This document shows, in pieces, positions 1 to 62,933 of a stretch of 64,000 nt of DNA. The stretch is from Mytilus trossulus. Its lineage: Eukaryota. The notes under the pieces were generated by a model. That model did not search any database and was not told where the DNA came from. It saw only the letters and a program-made list of their open reading frames with translations. The translations under genes were made by a program, and so were the position numbers. Position 1 is the stretch's first letter. Each line of letters opens with the position of its first letter. The stretch lies in the NCBI RefSeq assembly GCF_036588685.1, contig NC_086376.1, forward strand, positions 61,256,001 to 61,320,000, in the 5' to 3' direction.

Positions 1-259
1 CGTTATTTTCATGATATTTTTGCGTGAAACAATCAAGAATTTTCCAAATATACAGTTGAAATTCACCCAAAGGAGTTTACTTGAAAAAATAAAACTAATT
101 TTAACGGTTATAACTGTCCTTTTCTATATTTAGATATTTCGCTTGTACATGGGAAACTCCACACTAAAATTTACGACAAAAACAAATGTTGTCAAAAACA
201 CTGTCTTAATAGTTGCAATTTAAGCAAATAATCTTTTTTGATATTTGGAAACTTTAAAT

Positions 260-3884: not shown

Positions 3885-4625
3885 ATCATGGGTTTGAACG
3901 TTGTCAAACTCATAAATCGCAAATAAAATGACAACGTCATGGATAAAAATGAAAAAGACAAACAGACAAACAGACAAACAAACAAACAGACAAACAATAT
4001 TACACATGACACAACATAGAAAACTAAAGAATAAGCAACACGAAGCCACCAAAAACGGGGTGCTCTCAGGTGTTCCAGAAGGGTAAGCAGATCCTGCTCC
4101 AGATGTTGCACCCGTCGGGTTGCTTATGTAATAACACATCCGGTAAATAGTCTAATTCGGTAGGTCATATACATGAAAGGGAAGGGGATTGTAGTTACGA
4201 CGTACTGAACATATCCGATATTATTTGTGAAACAGTTATTCCATAATGGTCAACCAACTCATGATGGCGTCCTTAAAATTTACGAAGGGATTATTGCAAC
4301 CTCATCATTTGGAACTCTTGGTTTAATAGCTTCCTTGTGAGCAGCAACCCTCTATCAAAAAAATCATGATAGGAAATGCAAGCACGGGAATATCGTATCA
4401 ATTGGGAGATATATACCCGTATGCAGGTGCTGCTGGAATGTTGGTACTTACAAATGGAAAGTTCTCAATTGGAAAGCTGAGATCATCTCTGTTGTCGTGA
4501 AGTATTGTTTTCAACCGACCCTCGTTATCAATTTCTAAATGTAAGTCAAGATATGAGACCGACTCAACTGTATTTGTTGTATCCGTTATCTCTAGTTCGA
4601 CGGGATAAAGGCGTTCCAAATAGCC
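3885..4625 (-). mobile_element. 5'-truncated Penelope-like retroelement copy (RT C-terminus and 3' UTR)
   Basis: Reverse complement of about 37100-37800. ORF 4398..4811 contains RLYPVELEITDTT..SYLDLHLEIDNEGRLKT; the copy is frameshifted. Confidence 0.9.
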
Positions 4626-6200
4626 ACCAACTAAGTATTTGATAACTATTTGATAACTATTTGCAGTCTTTGCGCCGTGTTTGGAAATTTTAAAATTGCA
4701 CCAGCGTCTCTGATGTTTGTTTAAACTGTTTTTATTTGTATAAATTTCAAGATTGCAATAACTAATTTTTATATAAAATTTATATTTTAGCAGCATTCCA
4801 GAGAGGGACATAAAAAGCTTCCCTTTAAGTGAATAATTTGTTGTTACTGCTTTACAAAAATACTGTTTACTTATAACTTTATATTTATTTAAGGTATGAC
4901 TTAGGAAAACGTTTTCTATTATAGCAGAATATTTGAAATAAGAAAAAAAGGCTTACCAAACCACTTAGTATGGCTTGCTCGGTCATCAAATATTCATGGT
5001 AGAGTCCTACTCTAGGCCAATATTCTCATATTATGTGTTTTCGAGATTCAAGATATTAACCATCAAAGGAGGTTAACCTATGAAATGTTCACTTCCTTTT
5101 CTACCTAGGTACAATATTTAGTAACGATGTAACCCCTTACTTCCAAAATATTCGTAAGATAGATGATATGTATTTTTATGACCCGCAATTTTTTTTTCTG
5201 GAATAAAAAGTAATATCCATTCTCTACAACTGTCAAATTCAAGGGAATATTTTTGTTTCGACCCTACATCGAATGCAACCGGATGTGACATGCAATTTGG
5301 TGTTACACCTTTTCCATTCGTTACATTTGTTGATATAGTCTTACGTTTAATTTTGTCAGTATTTATTGAGTTCCCATGTTTTATATTGAAGTTTGATTTT
5401 TTATTAATACTTTTTTCATATATATACTATCTGGAAGACTTTAAAGGTCGTTGTGCAAGTAAATATATCTAGCATTCAACATGATAATAATGAATCTTGG
5501 CTCTTCTGAAAGAGAATTATCACGGATTAACATGTTGAAAAGGCTGAAGAATCAGAGCTACACATAAAACGTTTAATTGTTGATTCTATTAATATACATA
5601 TAAATAACGTCTTATTGTCATTGAATTGTCATTATTTATGACAGTTATCTTCGTAATTTCTTTTACTTATATGAAATATTTCTGTTTTTATAAAAGAGTA
5701 GTCTATATACCAATTCATCTCGCCATTGTGTTTTTGGGTTATTTTCGTTTTTGTATTAAAATGTCTATATGCTTTTTCGTGCTTCTTTGTTTCATTTTTG
5801 TTTGTTTTTATAGTGGTTAAGATTATAACTCAAAACTGATAGCTGTACCTCTATCTTTGACATTTTTACCTTTAATGTATTATTTTTGTTTGATTTGTTC
5901 ACTCATCGTTGAAAGGATAAGGATATTTCACTCTTATACATACAAATGAGAGGTTTAGGTGGCTATAAAACAAGGTTAAACCCTATATATTCTACATAAG
6001 AAATGCCTGTACCTAGTCAGGCATATGCCATTTGTTATCCATTGGTTTAATGTGTTTGAACTTCAGAAAACAGGAGTTGCATGAAACAATTAAGTACAAT
6101 GAATCCTTTTTAATATACATTTAATATTTATAAACCATTATAAACAAAATAAACAAATTTGTAGAAAATCTCCATCAATTCTTCATTGTCTCCTCCGATT

Positions 6201-7726
6201 CTAATATGTTCCTTTTTTACCTGAAAGGATAAACGATGTTGTTATAATAATTTGGGTGCATTGTATAATAGAAGAAAGAGTTGTGAATAAAGTTCATATT
6301 CTCCAAGTAACTAGTTTGATGTACATTCTACTAAAATTGATCAATCCGCCAGGTTTTTTTTATATTTATTTATGTACCCTCCGGTTGTTTATAAATATTT
6401 ATTCCTCCGTGTATCTCCTTCTTTGTTTTGTTATTATGCTGTGTCAAGTTTTTATAATTTTTGATTCAGAGAATAAGTATTTTAATTAATATAAATTACT
6501 TTAAAAATAGAATACAATGCACTAGGAATAAGAATATAAATCTTTACAACAAAAAGGATATGTCCTTTCATTTTGTATGAAACTCCCTCTCAAATCACAA
6601 TTTGGCAATAATAGTTATTATATAATATTTACAAAATTGTCCATTTATTTTATTTAGTGGTGTTAGATTACTTACCTCTAAATTTACCAAAACTGCCACT
6701 GTGAACGTTTCTTCTATTTATGAGTCCACCATTGACGTTAATACCAAAACCATTCAAACCACCAATACCATGTGATCCTAAACCATTCATACCACTATAT
6801 GATCCAAAACCATTCAAACCACCATATGATCCTAAACCATTCATACCACTATATGATCCAAAACCATTCAAACCACCATATGATCCAAAACCATTCAAAC
6901 CACCATATGATCCTAAACCATTCATACCACTATATGATCCAAAACCATTCAAACCACCATATGATCCAAAACCATTCAAACCACCATATGATCCTAAACC
7001 ATTCATACCACTATATGATCCAAAACCATTCAAACCACCATATGATCCAAAACCATTCAAACCACCATATGATCCAAAACCATTCAAACCACCATATGAT
7101 CCAAAACCATTCAAACCACCAATACCATATGATCCAAAACCATTCAAACCACCATATGATCCAAAACCATTCAAACCACCAATACCATATGATCCAAAAC
7201 CATTCAAACCACCATATGATCCAAAACCATTCAAACTACCAATACCTCCAATACCATATGATCCGTGGTTATTAACACCGTATGCCCCATTAAAACCATA
7301 TGATCCATACACATTTCCTCCAAGTCCTTGTCCGTATCCATAACCCATGAAAGGTCCAATAACTTTGCCGTAAACACCGTTATAACCATAACCACCTAAT
7401 CCATTTAAACCCCTTCCGTTCATGAACCCGTATCCAGGATATCCACTTTGTATATTATATCCATTGTATCCAGAATAACCACCAATGTTTAACGGTGAAC
7501 CGTTACCATACGCGTTGTTGGAAAATCCTCCAGATCCATAACCTAATCTGCCATAAGACGGATATCCGAAGCCACCATTTCCTTGAAATCGAATACTTCC
7601 AATATTACCTGGTCCGAATGGGTTTCCATATGTTTTCAGGTTATATTTGGGACTATATCCTTTCTCTCCGGCCTCGGATGCCACGAGTCCAAAAAGGGCT
7701 AAACCGATCAATAATATTGGTGTCAT
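6201..7726 (-). CDS. Secreted Gly/Tyr/Asn-rich repetitive structural protein, copy 1 (about 356 aa); coding exons 7726-6676 and 6220-6201
   Basis: Signal peptide MTPILLIGLALFGLVASEA and GGLNGFGSY repeats. Donor AGAG|gtaagt at 6676/6675 and acceptor tttcag|GTAAAAAAGGAACATATTAG give ...GKFRGKKGTY*. The acceptor tttcag lies 11 nt before the ATG (exon starts 7737). Confidence 0.9.
6760..7262 (-). repeat. Coding tandem repeat, 27-bp unit (GGLNGFGSY / SGMNGLGSY) with an 81-bp higher-order period
   Basis: ccatatgatccaaaaccattcaaacca repeats directly; the variant ctatatgat..cctaaaccattcatacca recurs roughly every third unit. Confidence 0.95.
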
Positions 7727-8009
7727 GTTTAGTGGTTCTGAAACGATATTCCATTATAATTAACTAATAATAATTTATGTGAAAATTCAAAACATTGACT
7801 TATCAGAACGACAGAACATATAAAGAAAAAAAATAATTGCAAAGATTTAAGACGTAAGTAAAATGAAATGTAAGTTGAATCTATATTAAAAAAGGTCAAA
7901 CTTATCCTGGCGTTTTAAGTTCCTGAAATTTATTTAAAAAGAAAGTAATGCTAAATATATCAAATATGAAAAACATATTTTTTCAAACAAACACAAAACA
8001 TACATTTAA

Positions 8010-14953: not shown

Positions 14954-16517
14954 AGCTGTTTTTTATTGTAAAAAAAGGTTCAGAGATATAGTATAAACTA
15001 TATTAGTTTACAATACCCTTTTCACTGATGCGATAAGAACATGTAAATATCCTGAAAGGCGATATAAATTCCATGGGATTTTTGGTGTGATGATAGCAGT
15101 CAACATGTCAACAACTTTCACAATACTGAGTACATACTAAAACGCAACACAAAAAGTTTGAAACAGTTTCTTCATCATCTACTACAATAGAGCAACAAAA
15201 AATAATAACCTGGGATATTGCACATGTTTCTTAATCCATTTGGATCGATCATATTACTTTAACGAGTGAAAGAATGAATTGTGCTTAACGTACAGAAGCA
15301 AATATAATATATGCATATTCTTGATGTGAACATTTGAATGAAAGATTAATAAAGTCTGCTTTGTGCTTGTCTGGCATGTTGAGCTGGATATCAATTTATA
15401 AGTCTTTTGTTTGATCTTGCTGGCAAAAGTTCGTACTCAGACAAGCACGCTAACCACCAGACCGTCTAGATTGTTTAGTATAATGATGAAAAAAGACAAT
15501 AGTAGTGCTTGACCTGACATACATATATGATATAAGGATGCGGCCAAGAAACAGGGAAATGCGAGTCTCTGCCGAGCTTTTTTCTTGTTTGGGCCGAATT
15601 CTTATATCGTTGATGTATCAAGTCAATGCACTATAATTGTCTGTATACTGCAATCTAAAAGATTACAATTTCAATTGTTGTTTAGTATGTATGTTATTAT
15701 TGGATTTAAATATTGGGAAACGTCCCCCTTTTACAAAAAGGTTTCACATCATGCAGGCGGAATGCGCAATGAATATGATGAAATGTTCATCTACCTGTTG
15801 AAACCTGCAATCGATGATGAGCAAGTTTGAGAATGAACTAAAATATCATTAATAAGCATGCATAAAAAATAATGATATATAGTTTGCAAACCAAAATTAT
15901 TAACAAGTGAAATATGTTTGTTTTTTATTCCAAAAAGTGCAAAAGAAATAAGTTCAAGTCATTGTATACATTGGAAACAAGAACATGACATAGAAATATA
16001 CGGTCAACGCATTTTGAAAGGTGATTCAAAATTGAAAGCGCAAAAGTCCATAGTATTTGAAGCGCAAATGTCCTATCGTTTTACAGGTAAAAAAGCGCAA
16101 AACGTCCTGTGCCCAAAAATACAGTGTCTGTCTATAAATACGCATATTACATGTCTGGGTATTTTTCTATATCTAAATATATCATTAGCGTCTAATGAAC
16201 ACATAATGTTAAAATCCCCTTATAGGCAAGGGAAAAGATGAAGCGATTGCTGATATGTTCATTTAAAAACGTTTGAAAAACTGTACATAAAGTTACACTT
16301 TAAATCAATACTATGCTGTAGAGTAATTTAGGATAAGTGATATTATTGATAATTTTATAAATAACTTTTTGGATTTTTCATTGGCATGTGATAGGAAACC
16401 ACCTTAATCTTTTAACTTCCTTGAATTTTGAATGTATATAAATATCAAAGTTAAATGTAAATAATTCAATTAAGGAGCGATTATTTGAACCAGACTAGAA
16501 ACAAATTTTCTTAGACT

Positions 16518-18790
16518 ATGGATGGAAACAACCCTAATCATTTAACCAGACATGGACGTACTAGGCCATGGACAATTAATGGAGATGCATTTAACATAGG
16601 AAACAGATGTGGCACACGTGTAATTGGTAAATATTTCATTCTGTAGTTTACTGCTTTTTTTTTCAGTATAATGATCGTTCTTTCGCATTTTTTTCGAGCA
16701 TACGAGCGACGTTCAAAATATTCACTCTGTGGTTAAAGTTTTCAAAATTTTAAAAACTTTCTTAAACTATCCTGGATTTCTACTAAACTTCGACAGAAGC
16801 TTGTTTATGTTCACAAGATAGTATCCAGAATTAAATTTTGTAAAAACAAAATTTCATTTTTTCCGTATTTTACTTATAAATGGACTTAGTTTTTTCTGCA
16901 GGAATCATATTACATTCACTCTGTGGTTAACATGGTTAAAGTTTTTAAAATCTTAATAACTTTCTTAGACTATCCTGGATTTGTACCAAACTTAGACAAA
17001 AGCTTGTTTATGATCCAGAAGTAAATTTTGTAAAAGAAAATCAATTTTTTTCCGTTTTTACTTATAAACTGACCTAAATTCTTCTATTTAACATTACATA
17101 CAGTCAGCAGTTAAAGTTTTTAAAACATTTATTAGATTCAGAAAATATCCTGGATTTTTACCAAACTTAGACAGAAGTTTCTTACGATCAAAAGATAGTA
17201 TTGAGAGGAATGTTTTATTGATTTTGTTTCTTCATTTTTGTTGAGTGTGCGATTACTAGCAAGAGTAGGCAAGACACCGGATTCCGCAGAACCGTTACGA
17301 GTTTTTAAGATTTACTAAAACATATTACTCTGATGCAACGTATTATTAATTCATGCGCGTCTGAACTGAAGTGTAATTTTATTTTCTGTTTAGAGCAAAT
17401 TAAACGCGGAATTTACCCAATTCAAGTATAAATATTATTTTCATTCATCCGGATTTCGCATTCCACATTTTATTAACATCCTCATTAAGTCATTACTCCA
17501 GTTTAATATAAGATAATATATCTATCTAAACTCAAACGGCCTTCGCCTATATATGCAAATTTGTTTTTCTTTCTTTAGATACCGATATTTGTTTGTTTAT
17601 ATGTTTATTAATATGTTTTTATGCTGTACCCATATTATTAACATTTTACCTTTTACGTCTGTTTTTGTGGGTTTATTTTCACCAATTATTGTAAGTATAA
17701 TGAATTTTATGAGACTGTCATACAAGTGAGAGGTTGGGCTTTCCAAAATCGTGTTTTATCCACCATTTTCTACACAAGGAAACAAGTGTGTTCCATTTAC
17801 CAAAACTTACATTAGTTAAAAGTGACACAATGTAACTAGGACCGGTGGGTCTGTTTTCTTTTCTTTGGTATAGACGTTGTGTCTTGATAATATTCCTCAT
17901 TACATTCTCAATTTTATACTTTGTCTATATACATATTTAAATTATTTTTCAACGTGACTTATGTTTTTTTTTCAGATTCTGAAGACAGCGACGAAAACAT
18001 CAATCTTTTGCAAAATTCACAACCAACATCAGAAATGACAGCAAATACAAATATTTCCGAGAATGCTGGGAAGACTCAGGGTACTAGTAGTCAGAATCAC
18101 TCCGATAAAAGTCCTAAAGTCCTCATTCTGCGAGATGATATTGATAATGAAACACTTACAAGCGCTTACATCAATTCAGATAGCTCAGACGAAAACATTA
18201 GTGGTAAAAAAGAGATATCTTCAAACGAACAAAGTATTGCAAAACGATGTAAAAGATTGTCTTCTTATATATTTGTAGTACTACTAAACGCACTAGTTAG
18301 TGTTGCAGTAAGTGTTGGACTGTATAACTATATAGTGTGTGTAGATAGCACACGACATGTTTTAGCAAAGGAACCTATGTTTGTCAATTTGAAGGTCAAC
18401 TTCGATGCATACAGTCAAAAGGTTAAAAACACGTCTGTTAAAATTCCATGGACATTTCAAGACGCATCATTTCTCATTTTAGACGATAACAGCACAGATA
18501 TCACTATCCTCCAGCCTGGATCATATTCAGTCGATGTTTCGTTGAATTTTTTTAACAGACGAAATAACGACTCAAAGCCTATATATATGTGTATTTTAAA
18601 CAGTTTAGATAGAACTTACGAGCGGTGCACCCCTGAAGTTATTCCAGCAGGCATACAGAGGTCTGTGACCGTTAGAATTGATATGAACTTGAAAAAAAGC
18701 GATATAATTTGGGTCAATGTTAAGGGAGCAAATCTAATTTACGAACGTTCTGATGCAAACCACATGACTATTAGAAAATATAGATTTTAG
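16518..18790 (+). CDS. TNF superfamily ligand-like type II membrane protein (about 307 aa); exons 16518-16626 and 17976-18790
   Basis: TM helix YIFVVLLNALVSVAVSVGLYNYIV follows basic KRCKR. The C-terminal ~140 aa has a TNF-domain pattern (IPW, ITILQPGSYSVDVSLNF, LKKSDIIWVNV). Acceptor ttttcag at 17975 is phase 1 and matches the phase-1 donor ATTG|gtaaat after MDGNNPNH...TRVI. Confidence 0.8.
16672..17306 (+). mobile_element. Non-autonomous element with internal ~190-bp tandem units and a 3' hairpin (pearl/Helentron-associated type) in the TNF intron
   Basis: Three repeats of gttaaagtttt..aaa...tatcctggattt..accaaactt.gacagaag, plus a terminal imperfect palindrome ggattccgcagaacc. Confidence 0.6.
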
Positions 18791-20062
18791 AAATAATGAC
18801 TATGTTAATGCTGGTAGGCTGATGTATATAGACTAACCTTTTATGGCGGTGTCGTGGGCTTGAATAACACTTAAAGGTTTTTTCAAAGAAGAGTCAAGGA
18901 GAACTATAGTTTACTTGAATTGACTTGATGTCGATTTGCTGTCGAAACGTTGTTCTATCGCTTTGTACAACCAGTATAATAGTCACTTGTACAACGAAAA
19001 CCACTTCAAAAAGTAGTCAAGGAGTAGAATTTACATGATAAATGGCAGTAGAAAACGTCATTCCGTTGTTTTGCGATTTGTTGAGTGCAGAAACGGTTTA
19101 AGAGTCTTGTAACAAAACACCAACTGATTGTTTAAGCATAAATACTACATGTATAGTCATTGGTCTGAGCAGAACGTTGAACATATATGAATATGCTGGA
19201 GACCGTTTAATAGAACAGTTTGGGTTAACAGTTTTTGCAAGAATTCTCCGAAGAACATTTGAACATTTTACAGACAATATATCACTGAAAAATTGAAAAT
19301 GAAATTAACATTAAGCTAATAATAAAGATAGTATTGAAATACCTTAGTTAAAATGAATTTGCTTATTCTTATAAATGAAAAGTGTATTCCTACATCGAAC
19401 TTTGCAGTCTTTGAGGCAAATCTAGACCCTTTTGTTCTTCTTTTTACATAAATCACAGATGTTTTGACAACTCTAAAACCAGTTTTAAAAGTGATAAGTG
19501 TGTAACACTCTCGAACGCGTCTATTCCCAAACGTTTCCGAACCACAAAAAAATGTAAATTTTCGGTCGATAGAAAACAAATTATAAATCGCTGAAACGTC
19601 ACAACATCCCAAAACTTGGTCAAAAAGAATTTCTGGGTTTAAATCAATTAATTGCAGAGATCTTTTAAAAACACTGAAGGTTATGAAAAAGTTTTTGAAC
19701 AGAAATTCAGACATGTAACAGTGAAAATTATCTGTTAGTCACAGTCGTAAAATATTTCACCCATATCCATGACGAAATAGAAATTAAAACTACACAAAAA
19801 AATCTTTACCGCAGGCATTCCTCTTACAGATGAGTTATCATACTTGCATTTTATTTTTGTATAGTTGATATCAATTTTTATTGATGCGATTCGAACGTGG
19901 TAATATATTAATAGGAGGGACTCGATCACCATTTAAGAAACAGTTATTGTCGAAATGCCCATCCCATGCAATAATAGCAGGTGGTGATGTTAAACATTCT
20001 TTATAACAAGCAATGCAATGCTGTAATTTGGACTACACAAAAACAGCATACATGATACGAGT

Positions 20063-28578: not shown

Positions 28579-29502
28579 TTAATATGTTCCTTTTTTACCT
28601 GAAATGATAAAACAATGTTCACATAATAAGTTGATTACATTGAATTATTGAAGGAAGAGTTGTGAATTAAGCAAATTCTCTTTTGATTCAGAGAATAGGT
28701 ATTTTAATCAGGATTAATCATTTTCAAAATAGAATACAATGCACAAGGAAAAAGAGAATAAATCTTCACATCAAAAAACAATATGCCATTTTGTAATGAC
28801 ACTCGCTTTCAAATAACAATTTTTCAATTGTTGTTATATTATATTTATAAAATTTCGATTTTATTCTATTTAGCGATCTTATATTACTTAACTCAAAATT
28901 TGCCAAAACTGCCAAACCCACTGTGACTGTTTCTTCCATTTATGAGTCCACCATTGACGCTAATACCAAAACCATTCAAACCACCTATACCATATGATCT
29001 AAGACCAATCAAACCACCATATGATCCAAAACCATTCAAACTAACAATACCGCCAATACCATAAGATCCCAGATTATTAACACCGTATGCCCCATTAATG
29101 CCATATGTTCCATGCATATTTCTTCCAAGTCCTTTGCCGTATCCATAACCCATGAAAGGTCTGATTCCTTTACTGTATACTGTATTCTCCTTCCGTTCAT
29201 GAACCCGTATCCAGGATATCCACTTTGTACACTATATCCATTGTATCCAGAATAACCACCAATGTTTAACGGTGAACCGTAACCATACGCGTTGTTGGCA
29301 AATCCTCCATATCCATAACCAAATCTACCATAAGACGGATATCCGAAGCCACCATTTCCTTGAAATCCAATACTTCCAATATTACCTGGTCCGAATGGGT
29401 TTCCATATGTTTTCAGGTTATATTTGGGACTATATCCTTTGTCTCCAGCCTCGGATGCCACGAGTCCGAAAGGGCTAAACCGATCAATAATATCGGTGTC
29501 AT
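28579..29502 (-). pseudogene. Gly-rich secreted protein copy 2, pseudogene
   Basis: Close to copy 1 but has a 1-nt deletion in the signal peptide (about 29468), a net 28-nt loss at 29161-29188, AGA>TGA at 28893-28895 and donor GT>TT at 28891. Terminal exon is 28579-28598. Confidence 0.88.
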
Positions 29503-29798
29503 GTTTAGTGGTTCTGTAACGATATTCATTTATAATTAACTAATAATAATTTATGTGAAAATTCAAAACATTGACTAATCAGAACGACAGAAAATATAAA
29601 GAAAAAAAATAATTGAAAAGATTTAAGACGTAAGTGAAATGAAATGTAAGTTGACTATATATTTAAAAAGGCCAAACTTATCCTGGCGTTTTAAGTTCAT
29701 GAAATTTATTTAAAAAGAAAGTCATGCTAAATACACCTGAAAAACATAATTTTTAAAACAAACACAAAACATACATTTTAAGTATAGCAACTGCTTAC

Positions 29799-34500: not shown

Positions 34501-37500
34501 CATACATTATTTCGGGACCATTTATAACTGACTATGCAGTATGGGCTTTACTCATTATTGAAAGCCGTACGGTGGCCTATAGTTAATTTCTAACTGACCT
34601 GTTAAGTTAGAACTGTGTCATGTTGGTCTCTTGTGGAGAGTTGTCTCATTGGCAATCATACCACATCTTCATTTTTAAATATAAATGTGCTGTTTTCGAT
34701 TTTAAATGGTTAACATTTATCTTTTAATTTTAAAGCAGATAAAAAAAAATGAAACTCAGCAACAAATAAAAGCATAAGCTAGAGTACAGTGATTAACATT
34801 TATCTTTGTCGGTCATCTGTGTCAATTTACGTGCACACTGACTACATTGTTGTTGTATTTAAATCTTTCGACCACTGAAATGAGACGTAACAAGTTGTTT
34901 GTTTGTAATACGCCAGAATGTTATCAATTAAGAATTGAATGCTTCTTTTTGTAAATTTATTGGGGTGTAAAACCGTTGACCGAAGTACATTTTGTATGAA
35001 GCGCGGAAGCGCTTCATTCTAAAAATGTACGCACGGTCAACGCTTTTACAACCCTATAAAGTTACAAAAAGAAGCAATCAATACTTATAATTTCATTTTT
35101 TTAGCTAGGATCATTAAAACACGGTTTTTATAGAGTTTTATTTAATTCACCTGTGCACTTTTTTGTAGGACCTCGTGTCATTATGAATGATAAGTTTTAT
35201 TGTCTGATGCAATTGCTTACGGAATAACATGTGATGTGCATTTAGCCAATCAGAATAACGTATTATAATGAAACATACATCTAATGTAATAATTGAACTA
35301 TCAAACGCGAAAGTTGACTGCATTTCAGTGAATTTCCCATCACAAGAAACCATTTGATGAATATTCATATTCGCCGAGAATAGGTTTGTTGTGATATCTA
35401 ATTCATAGACATCCAAAAACTTACACTATAAACTGCTCAGAGTCTGAATTGACCAGTTTTTGTGCTCGACCAGTAAAATCGAGCACACATTTTACTCGAC
35501 TAGTCTCGACATTGTCTCGACTGTACTTAACTGTACTTAAGTGTACTCGACTAGGTCTCGACTTTACTTACTTAGTCTGATTCAGTACTTGATGATCTTT
35601 GTGTAGTCTGAAATAGTCTTGGCCAAGGCTCGACCTGTTTCGACCTGTCTTGACTTGTCTCGACCTGTCTCGACTAGTCTCGACTCAGTATCAACCAGTC
35701 TCGACCTGCCTCGACAAGTCTTGACCTTCAAATTTAGTTTAGACTGGTGTAAATCCGCCAATCTTTCTAAATTAAATATTGATCTTACAATAATCAAGCT
35801 TATTAGGTAGTTTTTTTATTGCTGTGAAATGAAAGAATTTAATTTTACAAAAGGTGAAAATTATTATATAAATTCAGATGGGCATCTTTAATTTTTTAAG
35901 CTTACTGAATCCCAGGTCATTTTATTTTTTGTTGAAATGCTGTCAAATTCAAGAATTAAATTAATCTAGGTCAAAAAAGATAGAATTTGCAATTTGGACA
36001 AAATAGAGATAGTACACTTTATTTTTTTCAATAACTTTTTCAAATCAACTTGGATTTTCATCAAACTATGTAGCTATCTTAGATATATATTAAGTTTACT
36101 GAATCCCAGGTCATTTTATTTTTTGTTGTATTGCTGTCAAATTCAAGAATAAAATTAATCTAAGTCAAAAAAGCTAGAATTTGCAGTTCGGACAAAATAG
36201 AGATAGTACACTTTAATTTTTTTAATAACTTTTTCAAATCAACTTGGATGTTCATCAAACTATGCAGCTATCTTAGATAGATATTAAGCTTACTGAATCC
36301 CATATCAATTAGTTATTTGATGTAGTGTTGTAAAATTTAAGAATTTAAGTTATCTTGTTAAAAAAAAAGCTAGGATTTGCAATGTGTACAAAATAGAGAT
36401 AGTACACTTTAATTAATTTTTAATAACTTTTTAAAATCAACTTGGATTTTCATCAAACTATGTAGCTATCTTAAAACCCCTTTCTAAATTATTAACATCC
36501 ATTTTATCAGCAATCAAAAACGAGCTTCAAAGTTATTGTGAAACTGCCTTTTCTAGAGGTGGCGTGAATCATATGTGGATACTTAAAAATTCCAAAGATC
36601 TTTTAGAGTACATACAATCTAACTCTCTTTCATCTTGTAACAGTATTAAAACATTTGACTTTTCTAATCTTTACACAAGTATTCCACATTCCAAACTAAA
36701 AGACAAATTAAAAGAGTTGGTATTACTTTGCTTCATAAAAAAGAATGACCAACGTAGATACAAGTATCTCGTCTTAGGGAGGGATAAGTCCAACTTTGTA
36801 AAGAATCACTCTGATTCAAACAAAGAATTCTCTGAAACCGATATTATCAAGATGCTTGATTTCTTGATTGACAACATATTTGTTACGTTCGGAGGACGTG
36901 TTTTTCAACAGACTGTCGGCATCCCAATGGGAACAAACTGTGCCCCTCTATTTGCTGACTTGTTTCTTTATTATTATGAGGCTGACTTCATGCAGGAACT
37001 TCTTAGGAAGAAAGATAAGAAGTTAGCAATATCCTTTAACTCTACTTTCCGCTATATAGATGACGTTCTTTCACTAAACAATTTAAAATTTGGTGACTAT
37101 GTGGATCGCATCTATCCCATAGAATTGGAGATAACGGATACTACAGATACAGTTAAGTCGGCTTCATATCTTGACTTACATCTAGAAATTGACAATGAGG
37201 GTCGGTTGAAGACAAAACTTTACGACAAAAGAGATGATTTAAGCTTTCCAATTGTGAACTTTCCATTTCTAAGTAGCAACATTCCAGCAGCACCTGCATA
37301 CGGAGTATATATCTCCCAATTTATACGATATTCCCGTGCTTGCATTTCCTATCATGATTTTCTTGATAGAGGGTTACTGCTCACAAGGAAGCTTTTAAAC
37401 CAAGTTTCCAAATGGTGAAGTTGAAATCATCCCTTCGTAAATTTTACGGACGCCATCACGAGTTGGTTGACCGTTATGGAATAACCGTTTCACAAATGAT

Positions 37501-39563: not shown

Positions 39564-41719
39564 CTAATATGTTCCTTTTTTACCTGCAATGACAAAAATA
39601 ATGTTGAAATAATAGCTGATTGCATTGCATTATTAAAGAAAGATTTCAGTTCATATTCTCAAAAGATTTTGTTAAATGTACATTCCGCTAAAATTTCTCA
39701 AACTTTCAGTTTTATGTCTTCTACGGTCGTTCATATCTGTTCTTATTCTTCCGTACATCTCCTTCTTTTCCTTCAGTTTTTCAGGTTTGATTTAAATAAT
39801 TGGTATTAAATTAATCTAAATAATTTTCAAATCAAACAAAAAGAATGCACAAGGTTTATGGAAAACGACTTGTCGCATACAATTTCAAAGCTTATTTCAA
39901 ATTTTTCAAAACCTTTCAAATCAATAAAATTGAGAAAGGAAATGGTAAATATGTCAAAGCGACAACCACCCGACCATAGAGCAAACAACAGTCGAAGGCA
40001 ACCAATGGGTCATCAATGTAGCGAGAATTCCCGCACCCGTAGGTGTCCTTCAGCTGGCCCCTAAAATATGCATAATAGTACAGTGATAATGGACGTCATA
40101 CTAAACTCCGAATTATACACAAGAAACTCAAATTTAAAATCATACAAGACTAACAAAGGCCAGAGGCTCCTGACTTGGGACAGGCGCAAAATTGCGGCGG
40201 GGTTAAACATGTTTATGATATCTCAATCCTCCCCCTATACCTCTAGCCAATGTAGAAAAGTAAAAGAATAACAATACGCACATTAAAATTCAGTTCAAGA
40301 GAAGTCCGAGTCCGATGTCAAAAGATGTAACAAAAGAAAATAAATAAAATGACAATAATACATAAATAACAACCGACTACTAGCAGTTAACTGACATGCC
40401 AGCTCCAGACCTTAATTAAACTGATTGAAAGAGTATGCCTTCATCATATGAATATCAGGTACAATCCCTCCCGTTAGGGGTTTAGTATCATACTATCATA
40501 AAATATATGAAAAGAACATAACCCGTGTCATGCCAACAACTGTGTTTTTAGAAATAAATGTGTTTAGTTTCATGTTCATTTGTTTATACCTTGCTATGCT
40601 TAAGTCTTAGTTTAGAAATATCAATAAAGTCTCCATAGAGTGAAGCATAAGCAATCAATGTAATATTGTAACAAAGTATTTTACCATATACCACCAAAAG
40701 TTATAAATTATCCAATTCATTCATCATGCGGCATGATTTGTTTAACGATTTCCTTTCACACATATTCGTTTGTCGGAACAACGTGACGAACGAATGTCAT
40801 TTTGTATGAAACCCTCTTAAGTTACAAGCTGGCAACTGTATTTGTATTATAATTAGAAAATTTCACATTTACATAACAACTTTTTCTTCTTTTTAGTGAT
40901 GTAGGATTACTTACCTCCAAATTTACCAAAACTGCTCAATCCACTTAGACCTCGTCTTCCATTTATTAGTCCACCATTCACACCAATACCATTACCATTC
41001 AAACCACCAATACCATTACCATTCAAACCACCTACACCGTATGATCCAGAACCATTTAAACCACCAATACCATGAGATTTATAACCATTCAAACCTCCAA
41101 AACCGGATGATCCAAAACCATTTAAACTACCAATACCACCAATACCATATGATCCAAAGTTATTCAAACCACCATATGATCCGAAACCATTCAAACCCTC
41201 ATATGATCCAAAACCATTCAAACCACCAATACCATATGTTCCGTAATTGTTTGCACCACCGTATGCCCCATTAATACCATATGCTCCATAACCATTCAAA
41301 TTGTTATATCCTTCAATTCCTCGACCGAATCCATTACCATTAAAAAGTCCGATATTTTTACCGTTAAAACCGTAATTTTCATTACCACTGAATCCGTTCA
41401 ATCCTCTGCCATGTAGATATCTGTATCCAGGATATCCACTTTGAATACTATATCCATTGTATCCAGCAATACCACCAATGTTTAATGGTGAACCGTAACC
41501 ATAGGCGTTGTTGGAATATCCCCCGTATCCGTATCCTGATCTACCATAAGTTGGATATCCAAATCCACTATATCCTTGGTATCCAAAACTAGCAATATTA
41601 CCTGGTCCGAATGGATTTCCATATGTTTTCAGGTTATGTGTGGGACTGTATCCTTTTTCACCGGCCTCCGATGCAACGAGTCCGAAAAGCACAAAAGAAA
41701 TCAATACTATTGGTGTCAT
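39564..41719 (-). CDS. Secreted Gly/Tyr/Asn-rich protein, copy 3 (about 274 aa); coding exons 41719-40915 and 39583-39564
   Basis: The true start is MTPIVLISFVLFGLVASEA (acceptor at 41731). Same donor and acceptor as copy 1, giving ...GKFGGKKGTY*. AATAAA lies about 75 nt past the stop. Confidence 0.9.
39924..40571 (+). mobile_element. Dispersed repeat inserted in the last intron of copy 3
   Basis: Absent from the matching intron of copy 4 (tcaaatcaatgttcatttg at about 49390). Starts aataaaattgagaaaggaaatgg like other copies. Confidence 0.85.
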
Positions 41720-41940
41720 GTTTGTTGGTTCTGAAACGATTTTCAATAATTCGTCAAAATAAAAAAAATAATAATAAAACCTTTAAAACATAAACAAAAA
41801 CGGATCACCGAAAATGCTTAAGTAGATTAATGAAAGATAAAAGTTGTAAATAAAATATTGAGTTATGACGAATTATGACGATTAACATGATCTTTTGTGA
41901 GAGAAAGACGAATATCTTTTAAAGCAAATCAAGTACTTAC

Positions 41941-49035: not shown

Positions 49036-50630
49036 CTAATATGTTCCTTTTTTACCTGCAATGATGAAAACAATGTTCAAATAATAAGGTGATTGCATTG
49101 CATTATTAAAGGAAGATTTCAGTTCATATTCTCAAAAGATTTTGTTAAATGAACATTCCGCTAAAATTGCTCCAAAAAAACTTTCGGTTTTATGTCTCCT
49201 ACGGTTGTTCGTATCTTTTCTTATTCTTCCGTACATCTCCTACTTTTCCTTCAGTTTTTTATGTTTTATTTAGATAATTGGTATCAAAATAACTTTCAAA
49301 TCAAACGAAAAAAATGCACAAGGTTAATGGAAAACGACTTGCCCCATACAATTTCAAAACTTATTTAAAAAAAATCAAAACCTTTCAAATCAATGTTCAT
49401 TTGTTTATTCCTTGCTATGCTTTAGACTTAGTGTATAATTAAAGATAAATTCTTCATAGAGTAAAGTATAAGCAATCAATTTAATATAGTAACAAAATAT
49501 TTTACCATATACCACCCCATCTTAAATAATTATCCAATACATTCATCATGGAGCATGATTTGTTTTCCGATTTCCTTTTACTCATATTCGTTTGTCGGAA
49601 CATTAATCTAAATCAATTAACGTGACGAACGAATGTCATTTTGAATGAAACACTTTCAAGTAACAAGTTGGCAATTATATTTGTATTAATATTATGAAAT
49701 TTCACATTTAAATAACAACTTTTTCCTCTAGTAGGATTACTTACCTCCAAATTTACCAAAACTGCTCAATCCACTTAGACCTCGTCTTCCATTTATTAGT
49801 CCACCATTGACACCAATGCCATTACCATTCAAACCACCAATACCGTATGATCCAAAACCATTTAAACCACCAATACTATAAGATCTATAACCATTCAAAC
49901 CACCAAAACCAGATGATCCAAAACCATTTAAACTACCAATACCACCAATACCATATGATGCAAAGTTATTCAAACCACCATATGATCCGATACCATTCAA
50001 ACCACCATATGATCCAAAACCATTTAAACCACCATATGATCCATAACTATTTAAACCACCAATACCATATGTTCCGTAATTTTTAGCACCACTGTATGCC
50101 CCATTTATACCATATGCTCCATAACCATTTAAACCACCAATACCATATGTTCCGTAATTGTTAGCACCACCGTATGCCCCATTAATACCATATGCTCCAT
50201 AACCATTTAAATTGTTATATCCTCCAATTCCTCGACCGAATCCATTACCATTGAAAGGTCCGATATGTTTACCATAAACACCGTAATTTCCGTTACCACT
50301 GAATCCGTTTAATCCTCTGCCATGTAAATATCCGTATCCAGGGTATCCACTTTGTACACTATATCCATTGTATTCATTATAACCGCCAATGTTTAATGGT
50401 GAACCGTAACCATATGCATTGTTGGAATATCCCCCGTATCCGTATCCTGATCTACCATAAGATGGATATCCAAATCCACCATGTCCTTGGTATCCCAAAC
50501 TACCAATATTACCTGGTCCGAATGGATTTCCATATGTTTTCAGGTTATGTTTGGGACTGTATCCTTTTTCACCAGCCTCCGATGCAACGAGTCCAAAAAG
50601 GGCAAAGGAAAGCAATACTATTGGTGTCAT
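49036..50630 (-). CDS. Secreted Gly/Tyr/Asn-rich protein, copy 4 (about 301 aa); coding exons 50630-49745 and 49055-49036
   Basis: Start MTPIVLLSFALFGLVASEA; same splice sites; ends ...GKFGGKKGTY*; closest to copy 3. Confidence 0.9.
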
Positions 50631-50826
50631 GTTTGTTGGTTCTGAAACGAATCCGTTAAATAAAAGAATAATTATAGTACCTTCAAAAATAAGCAAATAC
50701 GTATAATCGAAAATGAAATAAAAAAGTTGCAAATAAGATATTGAGATGTATATACAAAATATGACGTTAAACATGATCTTTTGTGAGAGAAAGACAATTA
50801 TCTTTTAAAGCAAATCAAGTGCTTAC

Positions 50827-54370: not shown

Positions 54371-57300
54371 TTATGTTTCGTCGTTTTCGTCAACTTGGTC
54401 TAAGTTAGAAGAATGTCCATGTAGTTCTCTCTCAAGCATACACAACTGTTCTACAAATCCTGAATTTGGACATATTTTTCTATTTGATCTTGCTTCAACA
54501 ATGGCGTCCCAAAGATGGAATTTTTGCTTCATCATCATATATGCGATTGCTACAGTTGGGGACCGGCGGTACACAGAGTGACAATGAACTAATACTTTGC
54601 CTGAAAGAATAAGACACCATCATGTGTATGTCAATAATATAAAAATATGAATGTTGAATGAAGTGGTCTTTGTTTTTATAGAAGTGTCACAGTCCGCATA
54701 GTGCAAAACAAGTCGTATACTTTATCTTCGTATCAGTTTGGGATAATTTAACATTTGTAAACTATTGCTTATATCATGTAAACTTGTCATCGAGAAGTAA
54801 AATGTTCAAAATATCTTTTCCAGCATGTTATACGTACATACTATTTATTGGGGTATAATTACTATATCAAGTAGTTAAAATAGCTTGATTTTTTAAATAA
54901 AAGGTTTATAGTTAGGGGAGTCAATTTACCACAGGGGAGTCAAAATACCATGGCTAAGTAATTTTTCAAAATATCTTTTCCATGCAGCATGTTTTAAAAA
55001 TACCAAGGACGTATGTTAGTTATACATGTACGTCCTTGAAAATACATACAAACAACTTTTTGGAGTATTATTACAATTTAAATGAGTTACAATAGAAATA
55101 ATTTTAAATTTGGAGGGTGTAAAAGGGGGGTATTATATATATAGAAGGTCAATTTTACATTAGGGAAGGATATTTATTTTCATTTTTCAACAGAATAAAA
55201 TAAAACGTATGTGATAAATCATAAATGTAGCATAGCACTGAAAGCAGGTTAAAATAGCTTTAAATACTAAAACTCCAAATACTTGATCGAGGCGCTAAAT
55301 GACTAAAAATTCAAATGTAAAAGAGAAAAGTCTTTAGCTTCATACCATTTTGTTTCATAGCATTATCTATTATATCAGAAGTATGCTCAAAATGTTGTTT
55401 AATATCGTAATCTTCTTCGTCATACATCTCCACTTCAGAATAAGTAATTGCAGTGTCAGCGTAGTATTCGCTTCCGGTTTCTGAATCCTCTATTGCTAAA
55501 TTTAATATATGTGTGATTCCTCGGTATTTTAGTCCTTGTAAATCTCTTGCGAAGTGTCTGTAATATGTTAAAATGATTAAATTATTGGTACTTATAGACA
55601 TTATTTATTACTGTAAAATTGAAATTATTGCGATGTTTTAAATTTATCAGTACGAAAATTACGAACAGGTGAGTACCGCAATAATAAAATTCGCATTTTT
55701 GTCCATCTTTTCAAATCGCAACCAATAACTTCTGAATTTACAGTACATATAAATAAGAAAATGTGGTATGATTGCTAATGAGACAACTCTCCACAAGAGA
55801 TCAAATATATGTTAACGCCATTAAATCAGTTTCGAATTGAATTAACGAAGTTTGAAATTTGATTTGTTTTATTTTTGTTTTCTTAAGTTTTTTATGTTTA
55901 TGTTGTTTTTTTTTTTGCAATACAGACCTATCTATTTAAAGTTATCATTTTAATTTAATATATTTGTTTTTAGTCATAATGATTGCTGTTCGTATATTTA
56001 CACTTACACATTTCCGACATATATACTGGGGAAAACTTCATCCACATCATTTTTGAGGTGCTTATTGTCCTGGAGAAAATTTCGTATTTTGTAAAACAGC
56101 TTCACGTCGTAATGTTCTTCTGCAATAAAAGAAAGTATTAGTTGGATATTGAGCTATCTGTTAATTACGCTTTCGTGTGATTGTCATATCTATAATAAGG
56201 ACTTTTTGTACATTCTGTTGATTGTATAATCATGTTGTATAACAGTATATATAGTATATAGATATCTTAAAATCCAATCAGCTGATCGAGTAATGTGTGG
56301 CGTCAATTTCAGCGCTAGTCTCGATCAAAAACTGTGGATCAATATCATTTATATGTTACTTGAATAATAGAAATCGTTACCCCCAGAAAATCACCCCGGG
56401 TTCTTTTAACATGATTCTCAAGATCACTATATATCCTTCCTTTTCCAAAATATACTGACCGACTTTAGAAACGCAACACTAGATTATTTTTGTGTTATTT
56501 TTAAAAGGAATGTGTCAACGTCAAAAGCGATAACTGCCCGTTACAAACGCCAAAATGATTTTCAGAAAGGTCAACATATTCTGTCTGATATTTTTGAGTT
56601 CTGTTTTACACCTTCTGATTTTGCATTTGTTCAACCCATTAATTGGTTTTAGCAATTATGCGGTTAGAACTTGAGGGCTTTACGGGTTTTCCTTCAGTCA
56701 ATTCATTGGCAATGCAGTTTATGTTAAACATTTATGACATGAATCTGTACTCATTGGCACTCGGCAATTTGGTTAGCAGTTGACCGCAACGGCCGTAAAC
56801 ATGATTGGCAAATGACGTTCCATAATCAAATTCTGTTGATGTTTCATTGTCACTTCACGTTGATCTGTTCATTAATGGCCAGCAACAAATCTTGTGTACT
56901 TGCATCGTTGTCGGAAGGACAGTAGGACGAGTTTCTGAAGTCATAAGGTATGGTTGCAGCACATTTATGTTTTCATGTTGCAGTATTCTTAAAGGCTAAT
57001 TCGGTTCTTTTTTTTTTATTTCTCTGACTTGGCAAAATGGAGCTGCAACATTTTAAAAAGAATTAGTAAGGCAAAGGATTGAAAGAACTGTTTCACAAAG
57101 TAAAAAAATGAAACAATCTTTCATGGGACCAAAATTTCTCTGTAAGAAATTCGTGCGACTTCAAAAAATTCGGTATGTGCAATAACCACAAGTAAGTCAG
57201 ATTTTGATTTTTTGTAAGGAGAAAGAAGCATGATAAGCATAAAAAGTAGTTGTAAGAGAATCAAAAAAGATTTGGTAAAAAAAATCAACAAAATGAGTGT

Positions 57301-61865: not shown

Positions 61866-62383
61866 TTTAAAGTACGTTTTTCCATTTCCCGGCAATCTTT
61901 CAAAAATATCAAATAGAGAAATAGTTTTCTTTTTTGAGTAATGTTAATGACTCCCCAGTTCTCACAATCATAAAACACAATATTTTGAATGAAATGATCA
62001 AAAATATTTAAAAGGTTTTTGATACTAGTCTAAAAAGATCGGCCGTGAAACCCGGCCTTTATACAACTCAGGTTGGCATGCGATATTGTAGCAATAAAAT
62101 ATTTGTACAAACAAAGCACCTGTCAGTTTAAATGAGAGTATATTTCCTTTACAAAGGATAGAAGCAATACAAATTTTTCTATGAAATTTAAGATTGTTTC
62201 ATAATTTCAACGCATACCAGTATTTGAGAGTTAAAAGTGGTTGGAGGTAACAGTGCTTTGCTAGAGTCAAACGTCTTTTCGGTCGTTAGATATATTTATA
62301 GCAAAAGTACCTCCACATATAAAATTCTTTGTAAATGGAAAGTAGACGATCGACGATCGATTGCCAAACTATTATAAACTAAA

Positions 62384-62603
62384 ATGTCGTCAAACGAAGA
62401 ATCGACACTTTTTGCTATTTATACACTCGGGTATACATTTTTTAGTCTGGTTATGATAGCACCACCTACTGAATTTGTGGCTGCCGGTTTGACAGTTCAA
62501 AATATGTTGGCAAGTTTCCTTGGGAGTGAAGAACTTGGTTTTATCTACTTTCACATAAAAAGAACAGCAGCGACACTGTTGATTCATTCATGTTTTCCAT
62601 TAG
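62384..62603 (+). CDS. TMEM129: ER-membrane E3 ubiquitin ligase TMEM129, first coding exon (gene continues beyond the window)
   Basis: PPTEFVAAGLTVQNMLASFLGSE...FHIKRTAATLLIHSCFPLG matches the TMEM129 N-terminus as I recall it; donor TTAG|gtaacc at 62603. Confidence 0.88.
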
Positions 62604-62933
62604 GTAACCATTACAAAGTTGTTATTCATTCACTTATCGGTGCAGGGGCGGACATTTATTTTAAGAAAAAGGGGGAGGGGTTCCAAACCATAAGACAAGA
62701 TGTATTTTATTTCAAATTAAAGGCACACGGGGAGCATATATAGAATGCATACATTGTATGACCCCATTCAAAAACATTAATATCAAAATAAAAGAGGGTT
62801 CCAACCCCTCCCCTTTTGATCTGCCACTGAGGTGATGGGTACATCTCAACTGGTTTTATCAGACATATCTAAGATTTAATATGTATCAATATATATATAT
62901 ATATATATAGTTTTATTCAGGATCATGCTCCCT

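Follow-up and report, generated by a model that had tools for sequence, protein, structure and literature searches.

Within the window, as we call the whole 64,000-nt stretch of Mytilus trossulus DNA that was analysed, a two-exon gene on the plus strand encodes a 307-residue protein (P0001) whose spliced frame is that of RefSeq XP_063434105.1, uncharacterized LOC134715688. An ATG at 16518, preceded two codons earlier by an in-frame stop, opens the 36 codons encoding the peptide for which the preliminary description had proposed a RHIM-like motif. Exon 1, as delimited by a transcript-like contig (X20), spans 16333..16626, with a 5' UTR from at least 16333 and a coding part (16518-16626) that supplies residues 1-36 and the first base of codon 37. 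It is followed by a phase 1 GT-AG intron of 1,349 nt (16627..17975), with the donor GT after 16626 and the acceptor AG before 17976. The coding part of exon 2 (17976..18790, the contig extending to 19316) holds the remaining tail, the membrane anchor, the stalk and the TNF domain in a single exon. The joint 16626->17976 was present in assembled contigs of three of the four read sets examined (X1, X4 and X20), and a single contig (X20) spans 16333-16625 and 17975-19316 with the intron skipped. Despite the RNA status of these read sets being guessed or unrecorded (0 of the 24 runs listed have RNA on record), the skipping of a GT-AG intron was taken as a signature of splicing. The short exon that had been read beyond the ORF track is real, its ATG, donor, spliced contigs and RefSeq model being in agreement, and the junction given for it proved exact.

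Several other features were observed in the window. The intron carries a high-copy repeat near 16706-17375, at depths of ~50 up to tens of thousands in each of the four runs. A second joint, 16585 -> 17975 with unknown letters between, occurred in runs X1 and X5 at a depth near that of a contig ~10% diverged in exon 2; it may represent an allele differing across the RHIM-like core and was left out of the evidence. On the minus strand, four related glycine/tyrosine/asparagine-rich repeat proteins whose start resembles a signal peptide are encoded at 6668-7753, 28893-29539, 40907-41782 and 49737-50804, one of the copies appearing to be frameshifted; searched against Pfam they gave no match, and they look like a family of secreted structural proteins. 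Dual-specificity phosphatase exons (PF00782) lie at 54371-55604 (minus) and one or more exons of a TMEM129-like gene (PF10272) at 62378-62743 (plus). A reverse-transcriptase-like retroelement fragment with a weak PF00078 match was found at 36435-37418 (plus), and a fragment at 4398-4952 (minus) is similar by eye, with no PF00078 match.

In the AlphaFold model of the product the tail is disordered (residues 1-117, pLDDT under 50), residues 119-163 form a helix, and a beta domain is modelled with confidence. The sole hydrophobic window (best 19-residue window 134-152; 18266..18322, plus strand) follows a basic stretch with a cysteine and is predicted to form a transmembrane helix, giving a type II topology with an N-terminal cytoplasmic tail and a C-terminal domain; the exon 1 peptide is thereby placed at the tip of that tail, as had been suggested. 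Structure and profile comparisons assigned residues 170-307 (18374..18787, plus strand) to a TNF homology domain, a predicted jelly-roll trimer. More specifically, all matches listed by Foldseek for the predicted model were TNF ligands, with FasL, RANKL and CD40L at the top (from E 1.4e-8), and in a wide structural search with the same model RANKL and CD40L ranked highest (Z 15.0, rmsd 2.3-2.4, 123-134 aligned). The family profile retrieved CD40L first from the PDB (E 0.022), and profile-profile comparison of the family with 15 of the genome's 18 canonical TNF matches gave E 1.3e-4 at a probability of 54%. The predicted homotrimer scored 0.89 (best control 0.00), with 89% of contacts agreeing between runs and a pLDDT of at least 83; this score possibly reflects memory of solved TNFs, and the mark used was reached by 7/16 animal solved pairs and 0/30 single chains. 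The TNF-family call of the preliminary description is thus borne out by the predicted fold, though Pfam does not make it: the full protein returned no TNF match, scores below every Pfam TNF threshold and is absent from the 18 PF00229 matches in the M. trossulus genome. Among its relatives, PF00229 matches stayed sub-threshold, at 17.1 bits for P0005 and 12.1 bits for P0004 versus a cut-off of 23.

The same comparisons bear on a reading that we hold to be unlikely, in which the protein is a membrane-anchored recognition or adhesion molecule of TNF/C1q fold, lectin-like and endocytosed as a receptor, and not a ligand of a TNF receptor. Its rapid divergence, its tandem expansion in two clusters and a long tail with an endocytic motif would suit such a role. 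Weak C1q Pfam matches were found in 5/13 domain sequences and weak BclA_C matches also in members, and C1q, BclA and phage fibre domains appeared among the structural matches at Z 11-13. However, the first 14 structural matches were all TNF ligands, as were all the listed Foldseek matches; the best C1q domain reached Z 13.1, a TNF-over-C1q margin of about 2 Z units. Language-model features also pointed to TNF (0.88, to be read as a lead only), and the protein has a type II anchor and no collagen repeat. On the predicted structure, we favour a type II membrane protein with the fold of a TNF-family ligand over a C1q-like function, which is the weaker rival, and binding to a TNF receptor may be expected from that fold.

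Searching the genome with the anchor and TNF domain returned 13 matches: besides the gene itself, a group of seven lies at C4:75.98-76.05 Mb and another of five at C10:72.52-72.62 Mb. Two more similar frames occur within the C10 stretch, and the subfamily count is a lower bound. Both tandem clusters lie outside the genome's PF00229 matches. First exons are duplicated there, and some copies are degenerate (G000:C4:75.97-76.05 Mb, L002-L008 and L016-L023; G000:C10:72.52-72.62 Mb, L009-L013 and L026-L037), and L074, a degenerate first exon, appears closest to exon 1 at 16518-16626. Public relatives comprised proteins of M. coruscus, M. edulis and M. galloprovincialis together with assembly products. 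In the tree, P0025 was sister to a clade of our protein, P0002 and P0014 (support 89/98, not starred); since the latter two, its nearest relatives, are without exon 1 sequence, P0025 serves as the closest relative with a readable exon 1. A genome search with exon 1 recovered nothing beyond exon 1 itself except a single chance match (E 1.3), the search being insensitive and missing paralogous exons. A homologue search restricted to a region, with residues 10-110 of P0025 as query, found nothing and hence no further first exons, and an atlas search with residues 1-50 gave no usable match and was uninformative. The gene is a divergent member of an expanded mussel TNF-like subfamily; expanded TNF sets have been described in molluscs (PMC12843592, PMC3308963).

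Two short motifs stand out in the cytoplasmic tails of this subfamily. The first is a conserved island, T10-W18 (16545..16571, plus strand), of pattern [RK]x(1-2)GxTx[PV]-hydrophobic, a predicted docking or phospho-threonine motif; in this copy, GxTxP would fit a 14-3-3-type consensus RxxxpTxP. The second, E43-L48 (17993..18010, plus strand), follows an acidic serine-rich run and matches the acidic dileucine [DE]xxxL[LI], a predicted clathrin-adaptor sorting signal as defined in PMC2882754; the same source describes it as a recognised signal found in 15% of human single-pass tails. Of 18 family tails, five of them cut at the exon-2 acceptor and hence without exon 1, 14 contain [DE]xxxL[LI] versus 2.1 expected from shuffles and 8 contain GxTx[PV]-hydrophobic versus 0.09, counts that overstate independence, the tails being related and the GxTxP pattern derived from the same sequences. 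The dileucine is absent from four tails (P0009, L003, L006 and L011) and its position varies between clades, which suggests turnover with retention. G-x-T was present in 12/12 aligned first-exon peptides, an alignment biased for it by four genomic rows chosen by that motif, and GxTxP is kept in a paralogue from C10 whose TNF domain is only 24% identical. A 21-base GxTxP pattern hit four genome sites, all in this TNF-like subfamily, and the reversed control none.

That these motifs have no current function, the displaced copy being a drifting duplicate, seems to us quite improbable. The copy lies ~14.7 Mb from the main cluster, in which neighbours include degenerate exons and frames, as such drift might produce. 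Against this, the 307-residue frame is intact and spliced contigs were found in three of four runs; identity to relatives is 76-88% in the TNF domain versus ~67-80% in the tail, and the motifs are kept in relatives only ~25% identical in the TNF domain.

The RHIM-like segment itself, W18-V35 (16569..16622, plus strand; core F25-G28 at 16590-16601), adjoins the conserved island and lies inside the region predicted to be unstructured. It is a variable spacer, acidic in relatives, for which the RHIM assignment is unsupported. In the literature, the RIPK-type core reads (V/I)-Q-(V/I/L/C)-G (PMC9444067), and the looser cRHIM cores usually take the form VxxG or IxxG, Gly alone being invariant (PMC9387487). 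At -8, -6, 0 and +2, aliphatic residues are required in RIPK amyloids (bioRxiv 10.64898/2026.02.19.706818), and an Asn-x-apolar strand follows the core (PMC4262963). FNIG, already called non-canonical in the preliminary description, fits neither the strict core nor [IV]xxG, and exon 1 contains no [IV]xxG anywhere, though 43% of its shuffles do. The register was compared with that of L044, a control RHIM encoded in the same genome: at -8, -6, 0 and +2 the mussel tail has P, T, F and I versus I, I, I and I, at +1 N versus Q, and at +6 and +8 C and T versus N and M, the N-R-C after the Gly coming two positions early. Of the eight positions (-8, -6, 0, +1, +2, +3, +6 and +8), the segment fits +2 and +3 only, leaving 6/8 wrong, whereas the control fits 8/8.

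The Pfam RHIM model PF12721, with which the peptide had been proposed for scoring, gave no match at E up to 10 for the 36-, 22- and 307-residue forms; L044 was matched at 17.9 bits (E 0.0022), and even this control fell short of the 20-bit cut-off, the profile being insensitive. Genome-wide, 93 candidates yielded 7 matches to PF12721, all below threshold and none of them at 16518-16626. A PDB sequence search with exon 1 gave 5 weak, unrelated matches with no RHIM fibril among them.

Nor was the segment an island of conservation; the preliminary description had itself named lack of conservation as grounds for refuting the motif. P0025, the closest relative with exon 1, reads FNIE in an acidic run, the core Gly being replaced by Glu, and among the 12 aligned first-exon peptides FNIG occurs only in the present copy and is absent from 11/11 others. 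Identity to P0025, P0004 and P0018 is 8/14, 4/14 and 4/14 over residues 18-31, against a tail background of 62/91, 32/91 and 33/91, and 7/8, 6/8 and 7/8 over residues 10-17 (TRHGRTRP). Conservation of the RHIM-like segment does not exceed that of the disordered tail, in contrast to the adjoining TRHGRTRP, which is conserved. A relaxed RHIM core was observed once in the 18 family tails versus 0.44 expected from shuffles. A pattern fitted afterwards to the peptide arose in 0.4% of shuffles of the exon and in 0.6% of those of the tail, had 3 occurrences in 14,692 aa of 74 ORFs and was found twice in the window's six frames, the peptide itself included; a resemblance of this kind is therefore uncommon per protein and plentiful per genome. 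A QIG in L075, considered as support for a RHIM, was rejected: it follows Asp and does not share the register of FNIG, and the M. edulis/galloprovincialis relative has QTD instead. Profile, register, core and conservation all speak against a RHIM/cRHIM-like signalling motif in exon 1; the resemblance probably arose by chance in a spacer that changes fast, and the RHIM reading is most likely a false lead.

A genuine-looking RHIM is encoded elsewhere in the genome. At L070:2140-4758 (G000:C12, about 11.337-11.340 Mb, plus strand) an exon with a textbook RHIM (L044:1501-1557; IQIG core, all register positions met) is followed by death-domain exons (PF00531, 30.3 bits, over the cut-off). With its splicing read from the genomic sequence, this would be a candidate Imd/RIP-like adaptor in a mussel, and it bears on the statement of a 2023 paper that Imd and RHIM-bearing PGRPs were not found in molluscs (PMC9835746); the gene is also a direct reagent for a cross-seeding test.

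The adaptor figures in what remains of the amyloid proposal, namely that an acidic spacer, through loss of charge and the gain of two residues, recently became a lineage-restricted, non-canonical RHIM-type motif, so that clustering of the ligand would seed fibrils with the RHIM and death-domain adaptor. Over the 12 positions following the conserved proline, this copy has 1 acidic residue versus 2-5 in 9/9 relatives, and a two-residue hydrophobic insertion is present, together indicating a derived shift toward an amyloid-compatible composition. Hydrophobic residues do occupy -7 and -5, one position off the RIPK register. As reported in bioRxiv 10.64898/2026.02.19.706818, loop deletions raised nucleation of RIPK3 and glycine substitutions often did so, and FNIE alone would thus be compatible with fibrils. 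The segment lies in the disordered tail of a predicted trimer, much as the cRHIMs of insect PGRP-LC lie in a receptor tail; a candidate partner exists, and the insensitivity of the profile noted above tempers its silence. Set against the failed core and register, the confinement of FNIG to one first exon and the lack of any RHIM fibril among the PDB matches, these points leave the proposal very improbable.

We consider it probable, then, that this spliced mussel protein is a type II membrane TNF-family ligand, as predicted, that its RHIM-like stretch arose by chance and that its tail works through the acidic dileucine and GxTxP. Clathrin adaptors would bind the dileucine signal, and the resulting sorting would internalise the ligand or retain it in endosomes/lysosomes, limiting its display at the surface. 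GxTx[PV] may dock a cytosolic partner, perhaps after phosphorylation of the threonine, and any reverse signalling would proceed through motifs of these two types rather than through fibrils.

A TNF ligand wired to a RHIM would, if true, be a new architecture, amyloid-based reverse signalling caught at birth, but it fails its tests. A literature search covering few subscription papers found no paper joining TNF-ligand reverse signalling with a RHIM and, by title or abstract start, no study of a mussel RHIM; a review of TNF reverse signalling (PMC6389649) has 0 occurrences of RHIM. What the subfamily does offer is a set of tails that, as judged by motif, keep a classic endocytic signal together with GxTxP. 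Being uncalled by the Pfam TNF model, it is probably missed by domain-based counts of bivalve TNF ligands.

Compared with known TNF ligands (RANKL, CD40L, FasL and APRIL; insect Eiger), the mussel protein is predicted to share the type II topology, the C-terminal jelly-roll (Z 13-15) and the homotrimer. It differs in being only 9-19% identical over the aligned domain and under the Pfam TNF threshold, in its ~130-residue tail and in that one exon encodes both anchor and TNF domain. Vertebrate ligands are likewise described as using short tail motifs for sorting or trafficking and for reverse signalling, for instance a casein kinase I site (PMC6389649, PMC2647539). The mussel tail has no proline-rich domain and carries instead GxTxP and, at E43-L48, an exact acidic dileucine match with acidic residues upstream. 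In FasL, the best-studied sorted ligand, sorting is reported to be independent of dileucine-type motifs (PMC2647539). With the RHIMs of RIPK1, RIPK3, TRIF and ZBP1 (PF12721), the segment shares hydrophobic-polar-Ile-Gly then Asn, an upstream Ile and a disordered setting; however, Phe-Asn replaces (V/I)-Q, the first strand is one residue out of register, the Asn-x-apolar third strand at +6/+8 is missing, and the segment is unconserved and unmatched by the profile. Like the insect cRHIMs of PGRP-LC, -LE, -LA and Imd, it is part of a cytoplasmic tail at the N terminus of a type II membrane protein. PMC9387487 gives those cores as mostly VxxG/IxxG, with an invariant Gly and recurrent across insect PGRPs, whereas for the mussel segment the closest relative has Glu in place of the Gly, and the other relatives have an acidic stretch there.
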